A stretch of 64,000 nucleotides of DNA from an uncultured Candidatus Micrarchaeota archaeon (GTDB lineage Archaea > Micrarchaeota > Micrarchaeia > Burarchaeales > Fermentimicrarchaeaceae): positions 277,917 to 341,916 of the forward strand of contig CAISET010000002.1 in assembly GCA_903884505.1 (NCBI GenBank), given 5' to 3'. Made by a program: the position numbers and the translations under genes. This document shows, one piece after another, positions 5,408-62,235 of this stretch; positions within the stretch are counted from its first letter, which is position 1; each line of letters opens with the position of its first letter. The notes under the pieces are model-generated. The model had not been told where the DNA came from. It saw only the letters and a program-made list of their open reading frames with translations, and searched no databases.

Positions 5408-6736
5408 TTAGAGGGCTTTGTCCTGCAAGCATCTCTCTTTGTCCAAAACAAATACGAATTGTTTACCTCTCGACAACTTATGTAAATAACCCCTTTCTGT
5501 TAAGTCAAAAAGATCAGTTCTTGCCGTTTGATAAGTAGTATTATACCGTTCCTTCATCTCATAAATGGTTATTGATTGTTCACTTTTACTCAAACTGATA
5601 ATTAAATCAGCTTGGCGGAAATTCATTTTTGGATTTCGGCGTATTGTTTCAAAGATTCTTTTATTCTCTTCTTTAGTTTTTTCTATATACTTTTCGAATG
5701 AAGTTATTGCAATATCCATTGCGTGCAGATTAAATTTTACAAAGTACGTAACGTCATTATTGTCCGTTTCAGCATATAAATAGGCGCGAGTATACTGCGC
5801 AGGGGCATTATTAATTGCAGTAGATATGGCAACGTATTCCAAATAATCATAATTTTGTGCCAAAAGATACCAATAGAACAGCGCCCTTGCAGTCCGGCCA
5901 TTGCCGTCAAAGAACGGGTGTATCCAACCAATCATATAATGAAGCACCATAGCCTTTACAAACGGATGAAGGTAGTACTCAGTAGACTCGCCATTAACGA
6001 AATTGCAGACCTGTTCCAAAAGCTGGTCAATCTGGCTGTATTCGGGAGGATCGTAAATGATCTGCTGTCTGCCGTCTCTAGAAAAGACCTTAATGTCGTT
6101 TGTTGTCCTGAACGCCCCCTCATATTTCTTATCGTCGAGCGTATCATTTGTGATTCGCTTATGGATTTCTCGAATTAAATCAAATGTCAATTTCTGGTTA
6201 GATTCTACATGCTCCTTGATGTACCTCATAGTAATATAGTTGTTGAGTATCATTTGTTCTGAGCGAGTCCGCGGTTTTCTATTTTCTCTCAGCATTTTTT
6301 TTGCAACCAATCTGGATGTAGATGCACCTTCCAATTGACTCGAAGCTATTGCTTCTTCCATTAATGAGTTTACTAAATATTTTTTTTGTAATTCAACCCC
6401 CATTTTAGCTTCTAAGTCTTTTTCGATTTTCCCAGCTACGCGCATGTCCAGTTCATGAAGTGTTTTTTCAATATTTGGGGTCTGTATATACCGTAGTCTC
6501 AGGCCATTGATGCCAATGGTTCGCGAATCAAAACTTCTAGAGAATTCGATAAATGTCCACAACTTCTTAAGGTCAATGTCCTTGAATTGGTCATTTATTT
6601 TCAATTCATCCCAGTGTAAGTACTCGCTATTGGCGGCATTCAGATACGGCCTAAGTTTGTCAAAGTCCTCGCGTCTCAGCTTTTCGATATGTAGCCCAAC
6701 CGGTGGTTTTTCGGGAATCCTCATAGCAGCACCCAC
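5408..6736 (-). CDS. Fic/DOC family protein (AMPylation-type Fic domain with an in-cis inhibitory motif)
   Basis: Canonical Fic motif HPFFDGNGRTARAL. An SSQLEG inhibitory-helix-like motif lies upstream. The gene sits in an AT-rich island. The ORF-table start is GTG at 6736, with an alternative ATG at 6724. Confidence 0.8.
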   Translation of the reverse strand: MGAAMRIPEKPPVGLHIEKLRREDFDKLRPYLNAANSEYLHWDELKINDQFKDIDLKKLWTFIEFSRSFDSRTIGINGLRLRYIQTPNIEKTLHELDMRVAGKIEKDLEAKMGVELQKKYLVNSLMEEAIASSQLEGASTSRLVAKKMLRENRKPRTRSEQMILNNYITMRYIKEHVESNQKLTFDLIREIHKRITNDTLDDKKYEGAFRTTNDIKVFSRDGRQQIIYDPPEYSQIDQLLEQVCNFVNGESTEYYLHPFVKAMVLHYMIGWIHPFFDGNGRTARALFYWYLLAQNYDYLEYVAISTAINNAPAQYTRAYLYAETDNNDVTYFVKFNLHAMDIAITSFEKYIEKTKEENKRIFETIRRNPKMNFRQADLIISLSKSEQSITIYEMKERYNTTYQTARTDLFDLTERGYLHKLSRGKQFVFVLDKERCLQDKAL

Positions 6737-10235: not shown

Positions 10236-12479
10236 ATGTCGTACTCCTGGCTTCTCTTCAACCCATCACCGCTTTCCTTTTGGGGGCAAGCGTTTAATGG
10301 GTTTCGCACCCAACTATACCTTGTGGCAGAAAAGGAGCTCGAGCTGAAAGTGAAGGAGGCCCTCCAGAGCGACGTAGGGAGGGGCATCGCAAGGATAGAC
10401 AGCGCGAACATGGATAAGCTCGGGGTCGAGACTGGCGACGTGCTCGAGGTCGAGGGGCAGGACGGGAAGAAGGCAGCCGCCCTCGCCTGGCGCGCAAGGG
10501 CGGAGGACGAGGGGAAGGGGGCTGTCCGGCTCGACGGAATCCTCAGGCACAACAGTGGAATAAGCGTCGACGACATCGTGAAGGTCAGGAAGGCGGACGT
10601 GAAGCCCGCGAAAGAAGTCCACGTCGCGCCCACTCAGGAAATCTCGTTCAGGGAGGACTTCATCTCATATTTCCACGAGCGCATGCTGAACGCGCCGCTC
10701 ATCTCGGGCAACAGCATTGTTTTGGAGGTGATGGGCCGCGCGCTCGTCTTCACGGTCACGAACACGGCCCCGAAAGGAGTGGTGCAGGTAACTCCTGAAA
10801 CAAAGGTGAAAATTTCCACCAAGCCCATGAAAGCCGCGGCAGCCGTGGGCGTGAGATACGAGGACATCGGCGGCCTGAAGGAGGAGATAGAGTCCATCCG
10901 CGAAATGGTCGAAATCCCAATGAAGCACCCGGAGGTCTTCAAGCGGCTCGGAATCTCGCCGCCGAAGGGCGTGCTGCTCTTCGGCCCGCCCGGCTGCGGG
11001 AAAACATTGCTCGCAAAGGCAGTCGCCTCCGAGAGTGAGGCGCACTTCATCGCGCTCAACGGCCCGGAAATAATCTCGAAGTGGTACGGCGCATCGGAGG
11101 AGAACCTCAGGAAGATTTTCGACGATGCAAAGGAGCACGCGCCCACCATCATCTTCATGGACGAGATTGACGCAATCGCCTCGAAGAGGGAGGAAGCCGC
11201 GGGCGAAGTGGAGAGGCGCGTGGTCTCGCAGCTTCTTACATTGATGGACGGGCTTGAGGCAAGGGGCGACGTAATCGTAATCGCAGCCACAAACAGGCCC
11301 GATTCGATAGACCCTGCGCTGAGACGGCCAGGGAGGTTCGACCGTGAAGTGGAAATCCGCGTCCCGGACAAGGCCGCAAGAAAGGAAGTCCTCCAGATTC
11401 ACACGCGCGGAATGCCGCTCGACAAGGACGTGGACCTTGACGAATTCGTCGAGGTGACCTACGGCTTCACGGGTGCGGACGTCGCCGCGCTCGCGCGCGA
11501 GGCGGCCATGCGCTCCCTCAGGCGCGTCCTCCCGGACATAAAGCGCAGCGAGGAGGGGCTCAGCAAGGAGGTCCTCGGCAAGCTCGTGATAAGGAGGCAG
11601 GATTTCATAGACGCGCTCAAGAAGGTGGAGCCTTCCGCGATGCGCGAGGTGCGCGTGGAAGTCCCGCGGACAAGGTGGTCTGACATCGGCGGCCTCAACG
11701 CCGTGAAGGAGGAGCTTCGCGAGGCGGTCGAGTGGCCCATAAAATACCCGGACAGCTTCGCAAAGCTCGGCATCTCGCCGCCAAAGGGCATAGTCCTGAT
11801 CGGTCCGCCCGGCTGCGGCAAGACGCTTCTCGCCCGCGCAGCAGCAACCGAATCGCAGGCAAACTTCATCTCAATCAGCGGCCCCTCCATACTCTCCAAG
11901 TGGGTAGGGGAGAGCGAGAAGGCCATACGCGAAACGTTCAAGCGCGCGCGGCAGGTCGCCCCCTCCATCCTGTTCTTCGACGAGCTCGACTCCATCGCAG
12001 GCTTGAGGGGCGCGGGGGTTGGCGGCGGAGCCGAAGTCACGGAGCGCGTCGTGGACCAGCTCCTCGTTGAGCTTGACGGGCTGGAAGAATTGCACCAGGT
12101 TGTAGTAATCGCAGCGACCAACCGGCCCGACCTCGTCGACCCCGGGCTGCTCAGGCCGGGGAGGTTCGACAAGCTGGTCTACGTCCCTATGCCGGACAAG
12201 GAGGGAAGGAGGCAGATTTTCGGAGTCTGCACGAAGAAGATGCCCCTCGCCTCCGATGTCAAGCTCGAACAGCTCATCGACAAAACCGACGGCTACAGCG
12301 GCGCGGACATCGCGGCCGTCTGCAAGGAGGCGGGGCTTTTCGCCCTGCGCGAAAGCAAAACAGCCAAGGAAGTGGGCATGAAGCATTTCGAGCATTCCCT
12401 CGCAAAGGTGCGGCCCAGCCTGACGCCGGACGATGCGAAGGCGTGGGAGGAACTGAGGGCGAAGTTCGTGCGCGCCTGA
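10236..12479 (+). CDS. cdc48: CDC48/VCP-like AAA+ ATPase (two AAA domains)
   Basis: An N-domain ([19 protein letters not shown]) precedes two Walker A motifs (GPPGCGKT, twice) with DEID/DELD Walker B motifs. The true start may be the GTG at about 10323. Confidence 0.92.
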
Positions 12480-12514
12480 AAGGTTTAAAAATCACCTAAT
12501 GTGAAAGAGACGCT

Positions 12515-13054
12515 ATGAAGCGCGGACAAAGTGCTATTGAGTATCTTACCACCTACGGGTGGGCCATCCTGATTCTGCTCGTCGTCATCGCAGCGCTGTT
12601 CTGGCTGGGCGTGATAAACCCGAAGAGCGTGCTCCAGTCGAGCTGCTTCTTTCCGGCTGACATGAGCTGCCGCGCCTATGTAATGAACACGACCGGTTAC
12701 GTCGCGCTGGACCTCGGGCAGTCCACGGGCCACCCGATAAACGTCACCAACTTCCTCTGCACCTCGCAGAACAACCCAGCCCTGATAACCCCGCTCAACA
12801 ACCCCGTTGTCATCGTGAACGGCGACCACCAGCTCATAACGGACGGCACGCAGCAATGCCTCGACTCAAGTGGCGATATCGCTTCCGGCAGTGCCGGGAA
12901 CCAGTACAAGGGCAAGATATTCATCGAATACGTCGAGCTGGACACGGGCTTCACGCACACCGTCGCAGGGGATGTTTCGCTGAAGTACGAGGAAGTAGCG
13001 ATGCCGACCCCGCAGCCCACGTCAACCCCAACATCGACCCCCGGGCCCGGATGA
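12515..13054 (+). CDS. archaeal type IV pilin-like protein (class III signal peptide, DUF361-like)
   Basis: MKRG|[22 protein letters not shown]: prepilin-peptidase site with Q+1 and E+5 followed by a hydrophobic helix. PT-rich C-terminus. Confidence 0.75.
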   Translation: MKRGQSAIEYLTTYGWAILILLVVIAALFWLGVINPKSVLQSSCFFPADMSCRAYVMNTTGYVALDLGQSTGHPINVTNFLCTSQNNPALITPLNNPVVIVNGDHQLITDGTQQCLDSSGDIASGSAGNQYKGKIFIEYVELDTGFTHTVAGDVSLKYEEVAMPTPQPTSTPTSTPGPG

Positions 13055-13058
13055 GCTG

Positions 13059-14795
13059 GTGTCTTTGGCAGGCTCAAAACGCGGCCAGATCGCCCTCGGA
13101 TCGTCTCCGGCGATAACGCGTGGCCAGACCGCTCTCGAATTCCTGACAACCTACGGCTGGGCAATCTTAGTGCTCCTGGCCGCGCTCTCAGTAATGTATT
13201 ACCTCGGAATCTTCACCCCTCCTTCGCCCAACTCCTGCATCCTTCCCTCAGGTTTCGCATGCCAGGGGTACAAGCTGTCCTCAGGCCCCGGTGGCAGTGG
13301 CGTGCTCACGCTCGACCTCTCGCAGACGACCGGCCACACAATACACATAGTCGGGCTGGCTTGTTCGGCAGAATCCGCGCCCGGCATGACTGCTGTTGAC
13401 GCAACCTTGGACACGGGCCAGAAAGCCAGCTTCCCCTCCCTCAATTGCTCCAATGTCGACGGTTCGCGACCGGCCGCAGGCGATTACTACCGCGGCAAAT
13501 TATACACCAACTACACGGACGAGGACACGGGAATAAGCCACGTCGTGAAGGGCGAACTATCCTACCGCGTCGAGGTAGCCAGTGCAGCCTCGCCCACACC
13601 AAGCCTCTCTCCCAGCCCCTCCCCGACAGTAGGCATATCCCCTAGCCCGTCACCATCGCCCAGCCCAACTCCGACCCCAACACCTACAGAAACCCCGACT
13701 CCCACTCCAACCCCGACACCGGCGCCCACATCCGCCTTCACGATAGACACGACCGCGGACTTCGACGCTGGGGCTGAGAATGGCACCGCAACGATAACCC
13801 AGAACCCTGGAACGACGGCGGCGGATACGCTCGAACTGAAGAACGCCGAGATAACACCTGATGCGAACACTGTGGGTCTCTGGCACATGGACGAGGGCTC
13901 GAGCGGCACAACCGCTGATTCAAGCGGGAATGGGAATACAGGAACGATAAGCGGCGCAACATGGAATTCCTCCGGCATGTTTGGGAACTCGCTGGCGTTT
14001 AATGGGAGTACTGATTATGTAGATGTCGGGAATAATCCAAGCCTTAGTCCTTCTAATGCCCTGACCGTAACAGCATGGGTAAAATATAATGTTATAAATA
14101 GAAACACGGCCATCTATTCAAATAGCGAAATAATAAATATTGCAGTTAGTAATAGTGACAATGCATTTTTTTATCTTACAGACGTGAATTATTGGGTCAT
14201 GCCTGCAGGTGCAATCGGGAACATCAATAACGGGCAATGGCACCAACTAGTTTTTACTTATGACAGTGCAGGCGGTGCAAATAACATGCGTGTCTATGCA
14301 GACGGCATCTTGAAGCAGCAGACAACAGCAACAGGCACGCTGGCACCAACCAGCCACCATACGAAATTAGGCGTCTGGGCTGACGCTTACTATTGGTATG
14401 ATGGCACCATGGACGACGTCGCAATCTACAACCGCTCCCTCTCGGCTGATGAGATAACCGCACGCTACAATTCCGGCCTGAAATACCACACCTCCGGCAA
14501 CTGGACCTCAGCCACCCAAACGATGCCATCCGGCAAGCAGCTCTACGACCTCAGCCTCACGGTTTCAGGAGGTGGCACCTCAGACATAAGCAAGGTTGAG
14601 GTTCTCGACTCATCTGATAATAGCGTCATCACCACATGTTCCACACCCATCACAACGAGCACCGTGCTCACTGCCGCAGACTTCGACAACGGGTTCGGCG
14701 GGACTATGAACAAGAACCTGAAGCTAAGGCTCTACCTCGTTGGCGATGGCGCAAGCAGCATCGCAATTGAGGATATCCAGGGAAGGGCGCAATAG
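13059..14795 (+). CDS. large pilin-like surface protein: class III signal peptide + pilin core + Pro/Thr/Ser linker + LamG (Laminin_G_3 / ConA-like lectin) domain
   Basis: ITRG|[18 protein letters not shown]. (SP)n(TP)n linker. LWHMDEG..DSSGNGNTGT..GATW..GMFGNSLAFNGSTDYVDV......DDVAIYNRSLSADEI is the PF13385 hallmark. Confidence 0.8.
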   Translation: MSLAGSKRGQIALGSSPAITRGQTALEFLTTYGWAILVLLAALSVMYYLGIFTPPSPNSCILPSGFACQGYKLSSGPGGSGVLTLDLSQTTGHTIHIVGLACSAESAPGMTAVDATLDTGQKASFPSLNCSNVDGSRPAAGDYYRGKLYTNYTDEDTGISHVVKGELSYRVEVASAASPTPSLSPSPSPTVGISPSPSPSPSPTPTPTPTETPTPTPTPTPAPTSAFTIDTTADFDAGAENGTATITQNPGTTAADTLELKNAEITPDANTVGLWHMDEGSSGTTADSSGNGNTGTISGATWNSSGMFGNSLAFNGSTDYVDVGNNPSLSPSNALTVTAWVKYNVINRNTAIYSNSEIINIAVSNSDNAFFYLTDVNYWVMPAGAIGNINNGQWHQLVFTYDSAGGANNMRVYADGILKQQTTATGTLAPTSHHTKLGVWADAYYWYDGTMDDVAIYNRSLSADEITARYNSGLKYHTSGNWTSATQTMPSGKQLYDLSLTVSGGGTSDISKVEVLDSSDNSVITTCSTPITTSTVLTAADFDNGFGGTMNKNLKLRLYLVGDGASSIAIEDIQGRAQ

Positions 14796-14819
14796 CCGCC
14801 AAATAACCAAAGAAGAGAT

Positions 14820-17264
14820 GTGATTATGTCCAAGATGCAACGTGCGATGCAAATCAAATCGTCTCCGGCGATAACGCGCGGCCAGACTGCTCTCGAATTC
14901 CTGACAACATATGGCTGGGCAATCTTGGTGCTTCTGGCCGCGCTCTCAGTAATGTATTACCTCGGAATCTTCACCCCTCCTTCGCCCAACTCCTGCATCC
15001 TTCCCTCAGGTTTCGCATGCCAGGGGTACAAGCTGTCCTCAGGTCCCGGCGGCAGCGGCGTCCTAACACTTGACTTCTCACAGACTACCGGCCATACCAT
15101 CCACATAACCGGCCTGGCCTGTTCGGCAGAATCCGCGCCAGGCATGACTGCGGTTGACGCAACCCTGGACACGGGGCAGAAAGCCAGCTTCCCCACCATA
15201 AATTGCTCCAATGCAGACGGTTCGCGACCGGCCGCAGGCGATTACTACCGCGGCAAGATCTACATCAACTACACGGACGAGGACACGGGAATGAGCCATA
15301 TCGTGAAGGGCGAACTATCCTACCGCGTTGAGGTAGCCGGCGCAGCCTCGCCCACACCAAGCCCCTCCCCGACTGTCGGCATATCCCCTAGCCCGTCACC
15401 ATCGCCCAGCCCAACTCCGACCCCAACTCCGACACCCACGCCAACTCCTACGCCCACGCCTACCCCGACACCAGTGCCGAACGGCTGGTTCTTCGGCACG
15501 GTCACCGGTTCCGGGCCTATCGAAGGGGTTAGCGTGAATGCAAGCAACGCGACCGGCTTTTGGGCTGACACCACCAATGCCAGCGGCCAGTATGCGATTT
15601 ATGACCTCGCGCCAGGCCAGTACGACCTGAACGCCAGCATGGCAGGCTATTATGACAATGCTACGACCGCCACCATAACCCCTGGCGCCGGAACAGAGAT
15701 GAACTTCACGCTGCAGGCTATCCCGCCTCCCGCCATATTTTTCGATCTGACGTCGACCGCGGACTTCGACGCTGGGGCTGAGCATGGCACCGCAACAATA
15801 ACCCAGAATCCCGGAACGGCAGCTGCGAACACGCTTGAGCTGAAGAACGCCGAGATAACACCTGATGCAAACACAGTGGGCCTCTGGCACATGGACGAGG
15901 GCACTGGCGTCACAACCGCTGATTCAAGCGGGAACGGAAACAGCGGTATGCTTGGCTCTTCCGTGAATTGGGCTTCCAGCAGCCAAGGTTCGACGGCATC
16001 GGCTACTTCCGTATGGGGAGCTCCCTACCCTGCGTCCAAGACTATCGATGATGTTACCAGCGGACTTGGAGGCGCTTGGGCAGCCGCCGATTACGCGGCG
16101 TACCCAATCAATGTGACAATTGATCTGGGGACTGTGCGAGACATCTACAAAGTCGTTGTTTGGCAGATTGATCTCGCGGACTATCATGTGAAAGACTATC
16201 AGGTTCAATTCTCAACAGACGGTTCGAGCTACACTACTATGGCATCCAATACCTTGCCCGACACAACCGCGTATGCCCAAACCAACACGTTCAGTTCCAC
16301 TCCAACAAGATACATACGAATCTACATTACTTCAGGCTATCACCATTATGCGTATGACTCCGCGGGGTTGGAGGAAATCCAAGCATATTCTGCCCCCAGG
16401 TGGAACTCCAGCGGCATGTTTGGGAACGCGCTGCGCTTTGACGGGGCGGATGATTATGTTGATGCTGGAAATGGGGCCAGTTTGAATATCGTTAACACAG
16501 TTAGTATCGAAGCATGGGTGAAGCCTGCATCAAATACTCAGAATAGTGCAATAGTTTCTAAATGGACAACTGGGTTAGGCACAATCAATTCTTATGCTCT
16601 ATACATCGGGCAAAATGCAGGCAACAACAAATGGGCATTTGCCATAGAACAATCAAATAATACTTATCGGGAACTTTCACCAAGTTCTCCAACTTTTAAT
16701 GCAGGAACATGGTACCATGTCGCTGCAGTGGCAGACGGCTCATACTTGCGACTTTATATAGATGGAATAGATACCGGAACAACAACTTCTTATGACGGAA
16801 CCATCAAAACCACTACTAAAAAACTGCTTATTGGAAAATTGAGAGAAGAAGACAATCTTTATGATTTTGACGGCACCATCGACGACGTCGCCGTCTACGA
16901 CCGCGCCCTCTCAGTAGATGAGATAGCCGCGCTCTACAACTCCGGCCTGAAATACCATACCTCCGGCAACTGGACCTCAGCCACCCAAACGATGCCGTCC
17001 GGCAAGCAGCTCTACGACCTCAGCCTCACGGTTTCAGGAGGTGGCACCTCAGACATAAGCAAGGTTGAGGTTCTCGATTCATCCGACAACAGCGTCATCA
17101 CAACGTGCACCACGCCAATCACAGCGAACACCGTGCTCACCGCTGCAGACTTCGACAACGGGTTCGGCGGGACTATGAACAAGAACCTGAAGCTAAGGCT
17201 CTACCTCGTTGGCGATGGCGCAAGCAGCATCGCAATTGAGGATATCCAGGGAAGGGCGCAATAG
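14820..17264 (+). CDS. large pilin-like surface protein: class III signal peptide + pilin core + PT linker + carboxypeptidase-regulatory-like domain + F5/8 type C (discoidin) domain + LamG domain
   Basis: The N- and C-terminal modules are near-identical to 13059..14795. Inserted domains: [37 protein letters not shown] (CarbopepD_reg-like); [30 protein letters not shown] (discoidin-like); LamG with [15 protein letters not shown]. Confidence 0.8.
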
Positions 17265-17314
17265 CCCCCGAAAAACCTTATAAACTATCAGCAGCCAACC
17301 TTCGCTTAAGGGGT

Positions 17315-17815
17315 GTGATTATGTCCAAAGCACAAAGCGCGATGGAATTCCTGATGACCTACGGCTGGGCGATACTGATAATGCTCACGGTCATCGCAAT
17401 CCTGTTCTACCTGGGCGTCTTCAGCCCGGCAACCGTTTCACCCAACGCATGCGTCCTTCCGGCCGGCTTCTCATGCCACGGCTACAAAGTGACATCCGGA
17501 TCAGGCGACGACGGCCGCCTCTGCCTTATCCTCCTGCAGACGACCGGCCATACAATCAACATAACGAAAATGGCCTGCTCTGACCAAGAGAATCCAGCGC
17601 CGGTTGATATACATCGGCGGCTTTACAACGGCGAAACGTTAGAGATGTCACAGCTCACATGCCTAAAGGCGGACGGTTCCCCTCCCGGAGTCGGAGACTA
17701 CTACCGTGGAACCCTTTACATCAACTATACGGACGAGACAACGAACATAGACCATCAGATAAGCGGGGAGATAGCATACAAGGTCGAGCAGCAGATAGGC
17801 CCCTGCTTCCCATAG
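17315..17815 (+). CDS. archaeal type IV pilin-like protein (class III signal peptide)
   Basis: MIMSKA|QSAMEFLMTYGWAILIML, with the same mature N-terminal consensus as the three upstream genes. Confidence 0.7.
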   Translation: MIMSKAQSAMEFLMTYGWAILIMLTVIAILFYLGVFSPATVSPNACVLPAGFSCHGYKVTSGSGDDGRLCLILLQTTGHTINITKMACSDQENPAPVDIHRRLYNGETLEMSQLTCLKADGSPPGVGDYYRGTLYINYTDETTNIDHQISGEIAYKVEQQIGPCFP

Positions 17816-17855
17816 GCAAGCAAACCGTTAAATTCGCCTGCCGCCAATCCAAATC

Positions 17856-18656
17856 ATGGCATTTTCTTTCCTAGCCATCGCCCGAAGGATTTCAAAAAAA
17901 GCCATTGCAACCGCAGGAAAGGCGGGAGGAAGCCGCATAACCGGCACGAACCCCCTCGGGCAGAAGACGATTAAGGCGGACAGGGACCTGGAGAACCTCG
18001 TAATAGACGAGCTGAAGATGTCAAGGATTCCCTGCGTCCTTGCCAGCGAGGAAGCGGGGCTGGTCGAAATCTCCCGTGAGCCGAAATGGAAGTTCGTGCT
18101 GGACCCGCTCGACGGCTCCGAGAACTACAAGCGCAACGTCCCGAGCTATTGCCTCGGGCTCTGCTACGCACCGCTCCGCGGAAGGTCCGGCGATGTCCTG
18201 GAATCCTACGTAATCAATCTCGCCCGCCCCGATGAATTCTACGCAAGGAAGGGGAAAGGCGTTTTCAGGAACGGGAAACGCGTCAGGCCAAGCCGAGTTG
18301 AAGAAATGCGTAAAGCAATCGTTTCGCTCGACTTCAACGGGGAAGCTGCCGGGGGCAGGATAAGCCCGGCGCGGAAGCTCGCGCTCCTCGGCTGCGCAGA
18401 CCATAGGAGGTTCGGCCCGGACCTGCTCGACATGTGCTACACGACTTTCGGAGGGGTCGATGCCTTCGTGGACGGGAGGGGCTCGCTCTCCGCAGTCCAT
18501 GCAAGCGGCATCGCGCTTCTCGCGGAAGACTGCGTGCTCACGAACGAGCACGGCAGGCAGGTTGATTTTGCGCTGGAGGTTGAGGCAAGCACCGGTATCG
18601 TCGCGGCCGGGACGAAGGAACTGCACGCCGAGCTTCTTGCGGCGCTGAGGAGATGA
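17856..18656 (+). CDS. inositol monophosphatase / fructose-1,6-bisphosphatase family protein
   Basis: DPLDGS metal-binding motif. IMPase fold sequence features. Confidence 0.7.
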   Translation: MAFSFLAIARRISKKAIATAGKAGGSRITGTNPLGQKTIKADRDLENLVIDELKMSRIPCVLASEEAGLVEISREPKWKFVLDPLDGSENYKRNVPSYCLGLCYAPLRGRSGDVLESYVINLARPDEFYARKGKGVFRNGKRVRPSRVEEMRKAIVSLDFNGEAAGGRISPARKLALLGCADHRRFGPDLLDMCYTTFGGVDAFVDGRGSLSAVHASGIALLAEDCVLTNEHGRQVDFALEVEASTGIVAAGTKELHAELLAALRR

Positions 18657-18660
18657 TGGT

Positions 18661-19300: not shown

Positions 19301-19987
19301 ATGAAGATAGACCTGCACATCCATACCGCAAATTCGCTCGATTCCTGGATAGTCCCGGACAAGCTGCCAGCCATTGCCAAACGGAAGGGGCTTGACGGAA
19401 TCGCAGTCACCGACCATGACACCGCGAGCGCATGGCCCGCAGTTGAGAAGGCTGCAAGAAAGCTGGGAATAGCCGTCATTCGCGGTGAAGAAGTCGGCGT
19501 CAGGCCCGCAGGCAGGCGAGTAGGCGAGATAATCGGGCTTTTCATGAATGAGCCGGTTGACGGAAAAGGAAAGACGTCAGTCGAAGTAATCGACGCCCTC
19601 AAGGCGCAGGGCGCGATAGTGGTCCTTCCCCACCCGTTCGACAAATACAGGAAGATATTCCCGGAGGATGAATTGCGTGAGCTTGCGGTCAAGGTCGATG
19701 CGGTCGAGGTCTTCAACCCCCGCGTCGCCCTCCCGGAGCTCAACCGCAAGGCGAAAGCCTTCGCTGAAGAATTCGGCCTTCCGGAAACCGCCGGGAGCGA
19801 TGCGCACGTCTCATGGGAGGTCGGGAAGGCCTACACCGAGGCGAATGCCAACAGCCCGGAGCAGTTCAGGAAAGCGCTCATCTCGGGGAAAACGAAGGCG
19901 CATGGCACCTACCACCCGTTCTTCACCAGAATCTTCCCGTCAATAGCGAAGCTGAAGAGCAAGCTGCTCGGGAAAAAGCACCGCTAG
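19301..19987 (+). CDS. PHP-domain (polymerase/histidinol phosphatase-like) metal-dependent phosphoesterase
   Basis: MKIDLHIHTANS...GIAVTDHD...LPHPF...GSDAHV are PHP histidine motifs. Confidence 0.7.
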   Translation: MKIDLHIHTANSLDSWIVPDKLPAIAKRKGLDGIAVTDHDTASAWPAVEKAARKLGIAVIRGEEVGVRPAGRRVGEIIGLFMNEPVDGKGKTSVEVIDALKAQGAIVVLPHPFDKYRKIFPEDELRELAVKVDAVEVFNPRVALPELNRKAKAFAEEFGLPETAGSDAHVSWEVGKAYTEANANSPEQFRKALISGKTKAHGTYHPFFTRIFPSIAKLKSKLLGKKHR

Positions 19988-20622
19988 CACGGGACCAGTT
20001 CCGTAGTCTCGCCCGTTATCTGCGGCTCGTTCAATGCGCAGGTCTCAGGCGTAATCCACGCCCTTCCCATATAGGTTACTATGCCGCACACATTCCCCTG
20101 CTGGTAGGTGAAGCCGATTGTCGGGCTCTGCCTCAAGTCAACGGTTATCTTCGCCTTCACTTCTTCTTCGCTTAGTGGCGTGCACGGGGCAATCCCGGTG
20201 CACCAGGTCGGGTGGTAGTGCGTGAACAGCTGGTTCCTGACATTCTGTTCGCATGGATTAGCGGATGAGGGAGCTGGCGTAACCGCAGGCGTGGCGGTGT
20301 GCGTCGCAGCAGGCGAAGGGGTTGCGTTAGGGGTTGCAGTCGGAACAGGCGTCGGAGTAGGCTGGAACTGCGAGAGGTCTATCCTGCTGCCATTAGCATC
20401 AGCACAATAGGGCGGCCCGCGGCAGCAGTTCACGAATTCAGGGCCCGAAGACGCCCAGTGCCCTCCGGCCCCGCTGCACGCGTCATTCATCCAAGGCGCC
20501 GGGCTGATATACTGGGGGCAGTTGCTGTAGCCCAGCCCAAGGCAGAAATCCGTCCCCAGGCATCCGGGCAGCAGAAGCGAAGAGAGCACGGCCAAGGCCG
20601 CAACGAAGATTGTGCGTTCCAT
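19984..20622 (-). CDS. secreted cysteine-rich protein with a Pro/Thr linker
   Basis: N-terminal signal peptide (MERTIFVAALAVLSSLLLPGC). Many Cys. PTPTPVPTATPNATP linker. Confidence 0.5.
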   Translation of the reverse strand: MERTIFVAALAVLSSLLLPGCLGTDFCLGLGYSNCPQYISPAPWMNDACSGAGGHWASSGPEFVNCCRGPPYCADANGSRIDLSQFQPTPTPVPTATPNATPSPAATHTATPAVTPAPSSANPCEQNVRNQLFTHYHPTWCTGIAPCTPLSEEEVKAKITVDLRQSPTIGFTYQQGNVCGIVTYMGRAWITPETCALNEPQITGETTELVPC

Positions 20623-25165: not shown

Positions 25166-25298
25166 GCCGTGGTAGCTCAGCCTGGGAGAGCATTCGAATC
25201 TTTTCTTGGTTTCCAAGAAAAGGTGATGAAGCTGAAGGATTCCCAGACGAGGGGAGCCAGAAACCGAAGGGTCGCAGGTTCAAATCCTGCCCACGGCA
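25166..25298 (+). tRNA. intron-containing tRNA (about 133 nt; anticodon uncertain, possibly CUU/Lys). Intron of about 60 nt in the anticodon loop with a 10-bp hairpin and a GUGAUGA box-C-like motif
   Basis: Acceptor GCCGUGG/CCACGGC+A. D-arm GCUCAGCCUGGGAGAGC. T-arm GCAGGUUCAAAUCCUGC. The two halves are separated by an insert. Confidence 0.7.
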
Positions 25299-25532: not shown

Positions 25533-25689
25533 GCGGTCGTAGTCTAGCCTGGTAGGACTTAGGCCCTCCAATGGCCCTTTTCCCACCGCATATCCGGCTC
25601 CGCCGGGTTGCGCATGGTAAAAGCGCCAGCGGAAAATCCGCTGGCGAAGAGGAAAGCCTATAACCCGGGTTCAAATCCCGGCGGCCGCA
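25533..25689 (+). tRNA. intron-containing tRNA, most likely tRNA-Gly(UCC) with an ~80-nt intron at 37/38. The alternative reading Trp(CCA) is not excluded
   Basis: The 5' half is near-identical to the other Gly tRNAs. UAGGC/GCCUA stem pairs perfectly across the insert. Intact T-arm CCGGGUUCAAAUCCCGG and acceptor GCGGUCG/CGGCCGC+A. Confidence 0.65.
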
Positions 25690-60201: not shown

Positions 60202-62235
60202 CTACTTTTTCGCAACCCACGCGGCACCGATTCCGGCGAACAGCAGCGCGAATCCAGTTGGGCATATCCCTCCGCCTTGGCCGGGAGTTGCCGTTGCGGT
60301 AGGCGCAGGCGTCGCGGTCGCGGCCGCAGTTGGCGCAGGAGTCAGCGTCGGCACCGGAGTCGATGTGGGCGCAGGTGTCGCAGTCGCATTTCCCCCAGGC
60401 GTCGGGCTTCCCATCGGGCTTGCTGTCGGAGAAGCCGCTGGCGTGGGCGAAACCCCGGGCGACGGCGAAACTGCAGGCGTGGGGCTTGGCTGCGCGCACG
60501 CGCCTATGCTGAAGAACTTGACCTGCTGCGGGTATCCGCTCTTGTCAGCCACCGCTTTGTAGCTGCCCGCGCTTGAGGGCGTGAAGTTGGCCCTCCCGTT
60601 CGCGTCGCCGGTCAGGTTCGCAACCAAATCCCAGTTCAGCGAAGTGTTGTAGATGAACACCCCGACGCCCGCCCCGGGAATCGGGTTGCCGGACTGGTCC
60701 TCCACGCTCAAATTAATCCCCTCTTGCGTGCAGTTCCCGGCCACCGAAATCTTCAGCGCCCTAGTTGCATTCGGGCCGAACCCGTTGTCCTGCAGGTAAT
60801 AAATATCATAATTCCCCTGGAAGTTGTCCTCGAAAACCGCATGCACCCTGTTCCTGCCATCCAGCATGAAGTCATGGGAATACGAGTTCGAGTTGGTGTT
60901 GCTCACATCCCGCGCACCCCTCCAGGAGGAGTTCCACCCATTCCAATAAATCTCGCTGTTCCCGGGCGTGTCGTCCCCCCAGAGGACATGGAGGTAACCG
61001 TTCCCGTCCGCTCTTATCGCAGGCAGGTAGGAGAATCCCGTCGTGTTAGAGATGTCCGTCCAGTTGGAGAAGCTCACCCCGCCGTCATTGCTCCCAGAAT
61101 AAAGTATCTCATAGTTCCCGGGCGCGCCGTCCATCCAGGCCACATGCAGCTTATCGGACGCATCAACCTCGATTCTCGGCCAGTTCGAGTCCTGGTCCGG
61201 CGTGTTCGAAATGTCCTGCGAATTATGCGCCGCCCCGTTCTTCACGTTCGCATACCAAACATCCCACTGCGCGGGCAAGCTGCCGCTCGTGCCGTTCGCC
61301 TCCCTCCATGCCACATGCGCCACATCGAGCGAATCCGCATCCACGTCCGGCTTCTCCGAGCCTCCGATGGTGTTCGAGACATCAACAAGGTTGCCGCCTG
61401 TGCTGCGCGCATACCAAATCTCCATGCCCCTGTCCCACACCACGTGGAACCCGCCATTCTTGCTCGGCGCAAGCCTCGGGTGGTTCCCGCCGGCCGCATT
61501 ATCCAGCCACCTGGGGGCTGCCCACGGCTGCGGCACTCCAACATACTCCATGAACGACGCCATGGTCGCGCCATCCACGAACGCGAGCCCAGGCTGGCCG
61601 TTCTTGTCAATCGCGAGCTCGTAATAGATACTGGGCATCCCGCCAGCCACCGTGCTGGCCAGCCCGACGTCCGTTGCCTGCGCAGCGGCATCCCACGTCC
61701 TTCCGCGGTTTATCGAGCGCGAAAACCAGGGCGTATACTGCCATGCCTGCCCATGAACCTGCTCAGCCCAGACGACATACACGACCCCCTGCGAATCAAC
61801 AACTATCCTTGGCTGGATAGAATCATTGGTCGTGTTCGAAATGTCAATCGGCGCATTCCAGCTTCCGCCGAAATTGTTCGTGTATAATATCTCCCAGTTC
61901 CTCCCGCTCGGGCAATCGGCGAGCGGCGGCTCGGGCTCGCCAGCCGGGGGTGGCGTTGGCGAAGGCGTCACGCTCTGCGACGGCGTGGGAGTTGGCGTCG
62001 GGGTGGGAGTTGTTGTCGTGGCCGGCGTTTCAGTTGGCGATGGGCGCGGCTGGGGAAACACGCACTCCTGCCAGACGGCATGCACCACCCCGTTCGAGTC
62101 AACATAGACTCTCGGGTTTATCGAATTGCTCCCGGTATTCGATATGTCTACTGGCGCGCCGAAAGCAAGAACAAGCGAAGCTGCAAGAATCAGGGCTAGC
62201 CCTGCTCTAAATTCCCACGAGGCCATGCTAACCAC
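60202..62235 (-). CDS. cell-surface protein with repeated BNR/sialidase-like beta-propeller blades, a carboxypeptidase-regulatory-like domain, PT linker and a PGF-CTERM-like C-terminal TM anchor
   Basis: Signal peptide. At least six repeats of the pattern DISNT...P(R/A)I.VD..G..H.VW.D/E. C-terminus PTGFALLFAGIGAAWVAKK. Confidence 0.6.
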   Translation of the reverse strand: MVSMASWEFRAGLALILAASLVLAFGAPVDISNTGSNSINPRVYVDSNGVVHAVWQECVFPQPRPSPTETPATTTTPTPTPTPTPSQSVTPSPTPPPAGEPEPPLADCPSGRNWEILYTNNFGGSWNAPIDISNTTNDSIQPRIVVDSQGVVYVVWAEQVHGQAWQYTPWFSRSINRGRTWDAAAQATDVGLASTVAGGMPSIYYELAIDKNGQPGLAFVDGATMASFMEYVGVPQPWAAPRWLDNAAGGNHPRLAPSKNGGFHVVWDRGMEIWYARSTGGNLVDVSNTIGGSEKPDVDADSLDVAHVAWREANGTSGSLPAQWDVWYANVKNGAAHNSQDISNTPDQDSNWPRIEVDASDKLHVAWMDGAPGNYEILYSGSNDGGVSFSNWTDISNTTGFSYLPAIRADGNGYLHVLWGDDTPGNSEIYWNGWNSSWRGARDVSNTNSNSYSHDFMLDGRNRVHAVFEDNFQGNYDIYYLQDNGFGPNATRALKISVAGNCTQEGINLSVEDQSGNPIPGAGVGVFIYNTSLNWDLVANLTGDANGRANFTPSSAGSYKAVADKSGYPQQVKFFSIGACAQPSPTPAVSPSPGVSPTPAASPTASPMGSPTPGGNATATPAPTSTPVPTLTPAPTAAATATPAPTATATPGQGGGICPTGFALLFAGIGAAWVAKK

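Follow-up and report, generated by a model that had tools for sequence, protein, structure and literature searches.

Two lectin-headed pilin-like genes with shared flanks and AT-rich, divergent LamG cores in a four-gene cluster of a probable DPANN archaeon

The 64-kb stretch of DNA analysed here (contig CAISET010000002.1; the whole stretch is called the window below) contains four tandem genes, g1–g4, that span 12515–17815. The two central ones, g2 and g3, are modular pilin-lectin genes and form the subject of this work. The genes were delimited from open reading frames (ORFs) and their translations, and their lengths agree with the gene calls on public contigs; all features of the cluster described below lie on the + strand. 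g1 (12515–13054, 179 aa) is a short pilin-like gene with the leader MKRG and a Pro/Thr-rich C-terminal tail. g2 (13065–14795) encodes 576 aa, also as called in public assemblies, or 578 aa from an alternative start at GTG 13059, and g3 (14847–17264) encodes 805 aa as called in public assemblies, with alternative starts at ATG 14826 and GTG 14820. The last gene, g4 (17321–17815, 164 aa), is again short and pilin-like; it has the leader MSKA followed by QSAMEFLMTYGWAILIM, and its N-terminal DNA shares ~68% identity with the corresponding parts of g2 and g3.

All four proteins start with a short basic leader, the motif Q-[ST]-A-x-E-[FY]-L-x-T-Y-G-W-A-I-L and then a hydrophobic stretch. This pilin-type N-terminal motif occurs four times in the window, each time in g1–g4, and the four N-termini align with one another. 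A class III signal, defined by a leader ending in [KR]-[GA], a following Q/S and ~20 hydrophobic residues, was found in each protein: after MKRG in g1, after ITRG in g2 and g3, and after MSKA, followed by QSAMEFLMTYGWAILIML, in g4. Leader cleavage is predicted for g1–g4 on this basis. An AlphaFold model of g4 (mean pLDDT of 84.8) consists of a helix at residues 3–30 and then a beta-sandwich. Modular pilins have been defined as a pilin moiety joined to an extra domain that is not specific to pilus biology (Raynaud et al. 2021; PMC8179133), and at this locus Laminin_G_3, F5_F8_type_C and CarboxypepD_reg domains lie C-terminal to the pilin module. On the archaeal metagenome contig L122, which carries ribosomal protein genes nearby, an 810-aa protein (P0007; 8001–10433) joins a g4-like pilin module to Gly-rich and Pro/Thr linkers and Cys-rich repeats, indicating that the pilin module bears quite different heads in other genomes.

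Both g2 and g3 are built in the order pilin module, Pro/Thr/Ser linker, TADFDAG segment, LamG domain and a conserved C-terminal module of ~100 aa. Pfam Laminin_G_3 scored 83.9 bits in g2 and 112.4 bits in g3 (cut-off of 27.6), and a profile of the ectodomain matched the LamG-type structure 4qvs_A in the PDB (E = 1e-15, profile positions 46–249). This match places the LamG fold of g2 between 13884 (LWHMDEG) and 14495 (YNSG), so the first ~50 and the last ~32 residues of the fold fall within the blocks conserved in both genes. An Ig-like CarboxypepD_reg module (15495–15716, 45.4 bits) lies between the linker and the TADFDAG segment of g3, and a discoidin insertion of ~460 nt (15941–16400) contains the F5_F8_type_C match (15996–16343, residues 393–508, 58.0 bits vs. 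a cut-off of 28.2). The original prediction, made from the sequence of this stretch, had described both as additions to the second gene; Pfam indeed finds them there only. The discoidin, however, is not an addition beside the LamG domain: the LamG stretches on either side of the insertion are contiguous in g2 and in P0085, a protein of a related archaeon, so the discoidin is nested within the g3 LamG fold.

The TADFDAG segment and the C-terminal module also co-occur in P0086, P0088, L052 (1041–2249) and L055 (443–2956), bacterial and other proteins that carry Sec-type or ordinary signal peptides or membrane anchors, and in P0124 they flank a middle part with no recorded Pfam match. The two elements may be the halves of one domain that hosts inserted binding domains.

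Self-BLASTN of 12000–18500 returned four direct repeats, and independent repeat finding agreed. The N block, which covers the pilin module and the Pro/Thr linker, lies at 13100–13726 in g2 and at 14858–15478 in g3 (88.5% identity over 633 columns) and includes a 110-nt identical run at 13176–13285. The M block (13750–13936 and 15754–15940, 89.3% identity) consists of the TADFDAG segment, up to ~13883, and the first LamG strands (LWHMDEG...SSGNGN), and is followed by a short repeat of 78% identity (13962–14033 vs. 16401–16472). The C block (14399–14808 and 16868–17277, 92.2% identity over 410 nt) comprises the last LamG strands, up to ~14495, the C-terminal module, the stop codon and a further 13 nt; it contains identical runs of 80 nt (14529–14608) and 122 nt (14676–14797). 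The middle between these flanks of 88–92% identity has no DNA similarity.

The repeats named in the original prediction are therefore real, with some corrections to their extent. Segments 13105–13640 and 14864–15405, given as about 93% identical, reach 88.1% globally because of linker indels and 91–92% in the pilin-coding part, whereas the figure of about 95% for 14465–14795 vs. 16933–17264 stands at 94.6%, although the block in fact begins at 14399 and ends 13 nt after the stop codon. Recurrence of the TADFDAG segment (given as 13757–13910 and 15767–15920) also holds, but in a register offset by +2004 (13750/15754) and not by +2010. Conserved flanks do enclose the lectin cores as had been claimed; however, they are not whole modules, as they reach into the LamG fold.

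The synonymous and nonsynonymous divergence of the blocks (dS of 0.30 and dN of 0.033 for N, 0.43 and 0.06 for M, 0.23 and 0.034 for C), with dN/dS of ~0.08–0.15 across all three, indicates that they are no fresh duplicates and evolve under purifying selection. Third codon positions differ in clusters, and the longest identical runs extend over 36 codons in the N block (p = 0.004) and 39 codons in the C block (p = 0.009; permutation), a pattern expected of patchy gene conversion.

The unique leaders of g2 (13065–13099) and g3 (14826–14857), which precede the N block, resemble remnants of other pilin starts. The g2 leader SKRGQIALG is similar to MKRGQSAIEYL of g1 (12515–12545), and the g3 leader is similar to MSKAQSAMEF of g4 (17321–17350), with 77% DNA identity between 14813–14855 and 17308–17350. 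This gives the impression of one shared N block having been attached downstream of truncated pilin N-termini. TATA-like boxes occur 24 nt upstream of the g1 start codon (12484–12491, TTTAAAAA) and 37 nt upstream of that of g4 (17278–17284, TTATAAA), and no obvious one was seen upstream of g2 and g3, so g1–g3 may be transcribed together and g4 from a promoter of its own. A scan of the locus for bacterial-type promoters and terminators, which is not applicable to archaea, gave chance-level results.

The locus occurs in many ENA metagenome assemblies, and ten contigs were typed, across the three repeat blocks, at every site that discriminates g2 from g3. Each typed site was either g2-type or g3-type, with clean switches between the two; the sole exception, at the end of L009, stems from a spurious placement. 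Both L003 and L004 are of the window type, as is L008 in the part downstream of g3. Two further contigs carry short patches: L001 is a g2 with three consecutive g3-type sites at 13535–13542 and three more at 13865–13877, and L002 is a g2 with seven consecutive g3-type sites (13499–13542). Both differ from the window at paralog-discriminating sites only. At the protein level, P0001 and P0078 combine a g2 core with a g3-type C-terminal patch, and P0080 combines a g3 core with a g2-type TTCSTPITTSTVL.

Larger rearrangements change the gene content. In L005 and L006, g1 and the g2 leader run into g3 with a switch within 13176–13285, the 110-nt N-block run, so that the g2 body is deleted. The g2 core is joined to g4 through the 122-nt run 14676–14797 in L009 and through the 80-nt run 14529–14608 in L007. 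Contig L049 carries a g3 core with the exact reciprocal of the L007 C-block pattern, followed by the g2–g3 spacer and the g3 leader; such an order, with a g3-type core ahead of a g3 leader, would be expected of the duplication product of the same unequal crossover as in L007. The clustered differences and the clean switches in the typed contigs support the proposal that conserved flanks recombine, and the deletion junctions of L005/L006, L007 and L009, together with the reciprocal L049, agree with the further proposal that the repeats collapse or expand the locus. The idea of cassette-style diversification holds in part: flank recombination is supported, but no cassette repertoire emerged, as only two cores were found with these flanks.

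Some of these contigs differ from the window in other ways. L007 shows 0 differences in 878 nt across the core, and its pilin-locus part matches the window exactly, while its CDP-alcohol transferase gene is 3% diverged. From position 1784 onwards (vs. window 17862–18660), it is devoid of the inositol monophosphatase-family gene that separates g4 from the CDP-alcohol phosphatidyltransferase gene. Its first 105 nt have no match to the g2 linker; another frame of this part reads as Thr/Pro/Ser-rich, out of frame with the TADFDAG segment. This 5' end may represent another upstream partner, a copy with a frameshift or noise at the contig end. In assembly ERZ1426812 a 779-aa gene with a 130-nt spacer upstream takes the place of g3 (805 aa), and on the longest locus-bearing contig (343,674 nt; P0079) g2 is called as 497 aa only; these gene calls could be further structural variants.

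The chimeric alleles and variable gene content seen in L001, L002, L005–L007, L009, L049, P0001, P0078 and P0080 come from short-read metagenome assemblies only, several of them probably of the same samples, and the pair or its mosaics could in principle have been produced by misassembly through the 80–122 nt identical runs or by joining of strain alleles. Several observations speak for such an artefact and to that extent against recombination: many public contigs break within g2, some switches, including the large-scale ones, sit exactly in the longest identical runs, where assemblers can err, and the 105 nt at the L007 5' end are unmatched. We nevertheless regard it as improbable. The junction from the C block through the unrepeated spacer 14809–14857 to the g3 leader is possible only in a tandem array; it is present both in the window and in L049, and is probably covered by an 8.6-kb contig from a third assembly that extends 210 nt past g2. 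Moreover, L002, L006 and L007 are named k141, which we take to be the final k of 141 in MEGAHIT, a value longer than every identical run. The patches in L001 and L002 are bounded by identical runs of only 27–41 nt, L007 and L049 come from different assemblies and are exactly reciprocal, and the scaffold-named L005 shares one junction with the k141-named L006. Recombination between the flanks is supported by these sequence patterns, subject to the caveats of short-read assembly.

The LamG cores, ~365–395 nt in length, behave differently. The g2 core (14034–14398) and the g3 core (16473–16867) have no DNA similarity to one another: BLASTN gave no match, and a forced global alignment reached 54.8%. 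GC content is 0.432 at 14000–14420 and 0.399 at 16480–16890, as compared to a mean of 0.574 (standard deviation of 0.045) for 400-nt windows, and a GC content below 0.48 occurs at one other place in the 64 kb, the Fic gene. GC content at third codon positions (GC3) was referred to 715 windows of 140 codons in 34 native genes (mean of 0.751, standard deviation of 0.053, minimum of 0.62). It drops to 0.41 in the g2 core (13986–14405, z = -6.5) and to 0.34 in the g3 core (16473–16892, z = -7.8), is intermediate in the discoidin insert (0.53, z = -4.2) and is native in the CarboxypepD_reg module and all flanks (0.61–0.73; 0.71 over 15486–15734 for CarboxypepD_reg). The AT-rich part of g2 lies at ~13990–14290, with GC3 down to 0.20. 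In g3, the composition and similarity boundaries agree within ~30 nt.

The AT-richness claimed for the cores is thus a real shift that affects synonymous sites, and the windowed GC content sets them apart from the local background. The claim that they are unrelated as DNA is likewise upheld, yet they are homologous as proteins. The core proteins of g2 and g3 share 30–34% identity, those of g2, g3 and P0085 are mutually 28–34% identical, and identity to all relatives is 22–36%, while the flanks are 90–97% identical between g2 and g3 and 58–77% identical to P0085. By BLASTP, the g2 and g3 cores match each other with 43.5 bits, and the g3 core matches a Verrucomicrobiota protein with 48.9 bits.

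Searches for closer relatives covered several collections. An exhaustive HMMER search of 1.84 billion proteins gave no protein above 36% identity to the g2 core among the best 150 of 59,490 significant representatives, and the best relatives of the g3 core are 31–36% identical. IMG/VR scans with both cores returned nothing close and no viral source, and GTDB species representatives, queried with g2, contained only distant LamG matches (≤36%). A scan of JGI metagenomes with the ectodomain alignment recovered one moderately close relative, L050 (the P0085 site), the others being 30–33% identical. A chimeric flank-only query found no other protein that combines these flanks with a third core at high identity; a homologue search with full-length g3 was dominated by matches to Pro/Thr-linker words and missed even g3, which means that paralogs may have escaped it. 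In relatives, GC3 is uniform along the gene (0.63–0.87 in L050, 0.70–0.97 in L051); it is 0.43–0.70 within the lectin module of L055 and 0.03–0.17 in L052, which lies on a contig of 29% GC. The dip is therefore a peculiarity of the g2/g3 locus, and the family does include very AT-rich carriers.

The foreign origin proposed for the cores is plausible but unproven: their composition fits, and import would have to be deduced from it, with no donor found among 1.8 billion representative proteins or in IMG/VR. This empty donor search is also what would be seen if g2 and g3 were ancient duplicates whose flanks were homogenised by conversion while the cores diverged in place under diversifying selection, with local AT-biased mutation left uncorrected where the sequences had become too divergent to recombine. 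We consider such a history unlikely, though far from negligible. The cores are homologous, occupy the same position and have the same fold, flank conversion is directly seen, and the right-hand boundaries of the g2 core lie ~100 nt apart (composition at ~14290, similarity at 14399), all of which speak for divergence in place. However, L050, L051 and L055 have equally divergent cores with no GC3 dip, no core single-nucleotide polymorphism was seen among strains (as in the 878 nt of L007), so the cores are not evolving fast now, and the g2 core is no nearer to the g3 core than the Verrucomicrobiota protein is. The Fic gene (5408–6736), with the same low GC3 and probably imported, indicates that AT-rich DNA does enter this genome. 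Relatives that do not have the dip, the existence of AT-rich carriers and the polymorphism-free cores favour import over divergence in place.

Conserved flanks around a variable centre also resemble the layout of an expression site fed by silent cassettes, as in pilE/pilS, and the out-of-frame 5' end of L007 could be a promoterless copy. Programmed variation of this kind, or by a diversity-generating retroelement, appears very improbable to us: the 64 kb contain no further copies of flanks or cores, no promoterless partial copies were found within the window, g2 and g3 are intact with a start of their own, and the cores are invariant among strains. A diversity-generating retroelement was rejected, as the mismatch spectrum between the copies is not adenine-specific and no reverse transcriptase is encoded among the scanned neighbouring ORFs.

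We therefore interpret the locus as a four-gene DPANN pilin cluster with two recombining lectin-headed pilins whose cores were imported from AT-rich relatives, a reading to which we assign a probability of roughly two in three. Two short pilins, g1 and g4, would flank the modular g2 and g3. In the pilin module, a class III-type signal peptide would precede a hydrophobic helix and an Ig-like sandwich, and the linker would tether the lectin head, made up of the TADFDAG segment, a LamG jelly-roll and the conserved C-terminal beta module. In g3, CarboxypepD_reg would serve as a further spacer, and a discoidin domain would be nested in the first LamG strands. Being tandem direct repeats, g2 and g3 would recombine homologously in their 5' and 3' parts; conversion of short tracts would hold the flanks at 88–92% identity under purifying selection, and unequal crossovers in the 110-, 80- and 122-nt runs would generate the one-gene forms and the junction implying an extra copy. 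The central ~365–395 nt of LamG would stay outside this exchange, the two cores differing from each other as much as from homologues of other phyla. Core codon usage fits a genome of ~35–40% GC and not this one of 57% GC, suggesting that both cores were imported from AT-rich relatives; the import would have used the conserved LamG strands at the two ends of the fold, the first and the last, as sites of recombination. The heads are predicted to be displayed on type IV pili and to bind glycans of a host cell or surface.

Besides the points on assembly and core origin given above, several results on the pilin and lectin parts weigh against this reading. The pilin-fold match is not specific, since generic Ig-like folds score equally, and Foldseek returned nothing at E ≤ 0.001. 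None of g1–g4 matched a curated pilin model in Pfam (E ≤ 0.1) or NCBIfam (E ≤ 1), and a scan of ~40 window ORFs revealed neither a prepilin peptidase nor a pilus assembly gene. The model of the ectodomain, computed from too shallow an alignment, reached a pLDDT of only 50 and is unusable for the question of a split domain, and both pilus display and glycan binding are predictions.

A further extension would make the LamG end strands, together with the TADFDAG and C-terminal modules, homology arms through which lectin cores are swapped among paralogs, strains and species. We regard this as rather unlikely. If it were true, DPANN archaea would use portable cassettes to redirect their pilus-tip adhesins towards new host glycans, the AT-rich cores would have been acquired recently from DPANN neighbours of low GC, and the copy number would be adjusted by unequal crossover.

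The gene content of the window points to a DPANN archaeon related to Micrarchaeota as the host; that the genes are archaeal had escaped the original prediction. The window encodes an archaeal LonB, Hjc, a DnaG-type Toprim protein, both primase subunits and PCNA, and contains two + strand tRNA matches (25166–25298, 133 nt; 25533–25689, 157 nt) that are far longer than the 71-position model, suggesting introns and consistent with an archaeal genome. The lineage is placed by LonB matches alone, the best named relatives being a Candidatus ainarchaeum sp. record (76%) and Micrarchaeota/Micrarchaeia records (~63–70%).

Three neighbouring genes deserve mention. The Fic/DOC protein gene, which includes a DeoR-like helix-turn-helix, lies on the - strand between a CBS-domain gene and a PF1765-like gene. 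It is the sole other AT-rich island in the 64 kb (GC of 0.33–0.47 in 400-nt windows, GC3 of 0.41) and is probably a second piece of imported DNA. Two probable surface proteins with Pro/Thr linkers are also encoded on the - strand: one of 677 aa (60202–62235) has a sub-threshold CarboxypepD_reg match (28.3 bits vs. 32.3), and the other, of 212 aa (19984–20622), is Cys-rich with an N-terminal hydrophobic stretch.

Several known systems share parts of this design. In Streptococcus sanguinis, PilC carries a lectin module grafted onto a pilin, is thought to sit at the pilus tip and to bind glycans, and PilB is an example of a modular type IV pilin with a vWA module (PMC8179133; PMC9934059). Like PilC, g2 and g3 combine a class III signal and a pilin moiety with a C-terminal ConA-like/LamG lectin, with an Ig-like spacer as in g3. 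Unlike PilC, they are archaeal, match no bacterial or archaeal pilin model, and have a function that is predicted from sequence. They also have a long Pro/Thr linker instead of a short loop, place the lectin between the TADFDAG segment and the C-terminal module, nest a discoidin domain in the g3 LamG, and form two recombining tandem copies.

A laminin G-like domain is also found at the C-terminus of TafC, the tip protein of haloarchaeal Tat-fimbriae, which has been modelled at the filament end (PMC11821415). The TafC model NF052521 is the best NCBIfam match of both proteins (43.1 bits for g2, 68.3 bits for g3), with only the LamG part aligning. Membership in the TafC family was rejected, as these scores are far under the 410-bit cut-off. 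In contrast to the class III signal of g2 and g3, TafC is exported by Tat and assembled by donor-strand exchange.

Among cultured Micrarchaeota, Candidatus Mancarchaeum acidiphilum Mia14 has an expanded set of LamG proteins, some by type IV pilus loci and in genomic islands, and jelly-roll LamG proteins are abundant in DPANN, for which a role in host-cell interaction has been proposed (PMC5498576). By its LonB similarity the present organism belongs to the same broad lineage and likewise has LamG proteins; the two are set side by side here from the published description of Mia14. That paper describes neither a pilin fused to LamG nor tandem paralogs of mosaic structure, and no compositional mosaicism within genes (PMC5498576), and, unlike the Mia14 loci, the g2/g3 window has no pilus assembly gene among the ORFs scanned.

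A parallel in evolutionary behaviour is offered by babA, babB and babC of Helicobacter pylori, which have near-identical ends, a divergent middle that bears specificity, conversion chimeras and a variable gene content (PMC4552749). The near-identical 5' and 3' regions, divergent middle and chimeric alleles of g2 and g3 correspond to this. However, the bab genes lie at dispersed loci, have phase-variable CT repeats and code for outer-membrane proteins of a bacterium, whereas g2 and g3 are archaeal pilin fusions with compositionally foreign middles, and their direct tandem arrangement means that unequal crossover also alters the copy number, unlike in bab. What is new is the combination: tandem archaeal pilin fusions, a discoidin nested in LamG, recombination arms extending into the lectin fold, and cores of foreign composition.

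The locus is a clear compositional mosaic inside a single protein fold and as such bears on piecemeal domain replacement. DPANN archaea live attached to other cells, and their host recognition is largely unexplained; a pilus subunit whose lectin head can be exchanged is a concrete candidate for it, and recombination among natural variants would offer a simple route to change or lose specificity. Both of these points have bacterial precedent, so that the value of the finding lies mainly in archaeal and DPANN biology.

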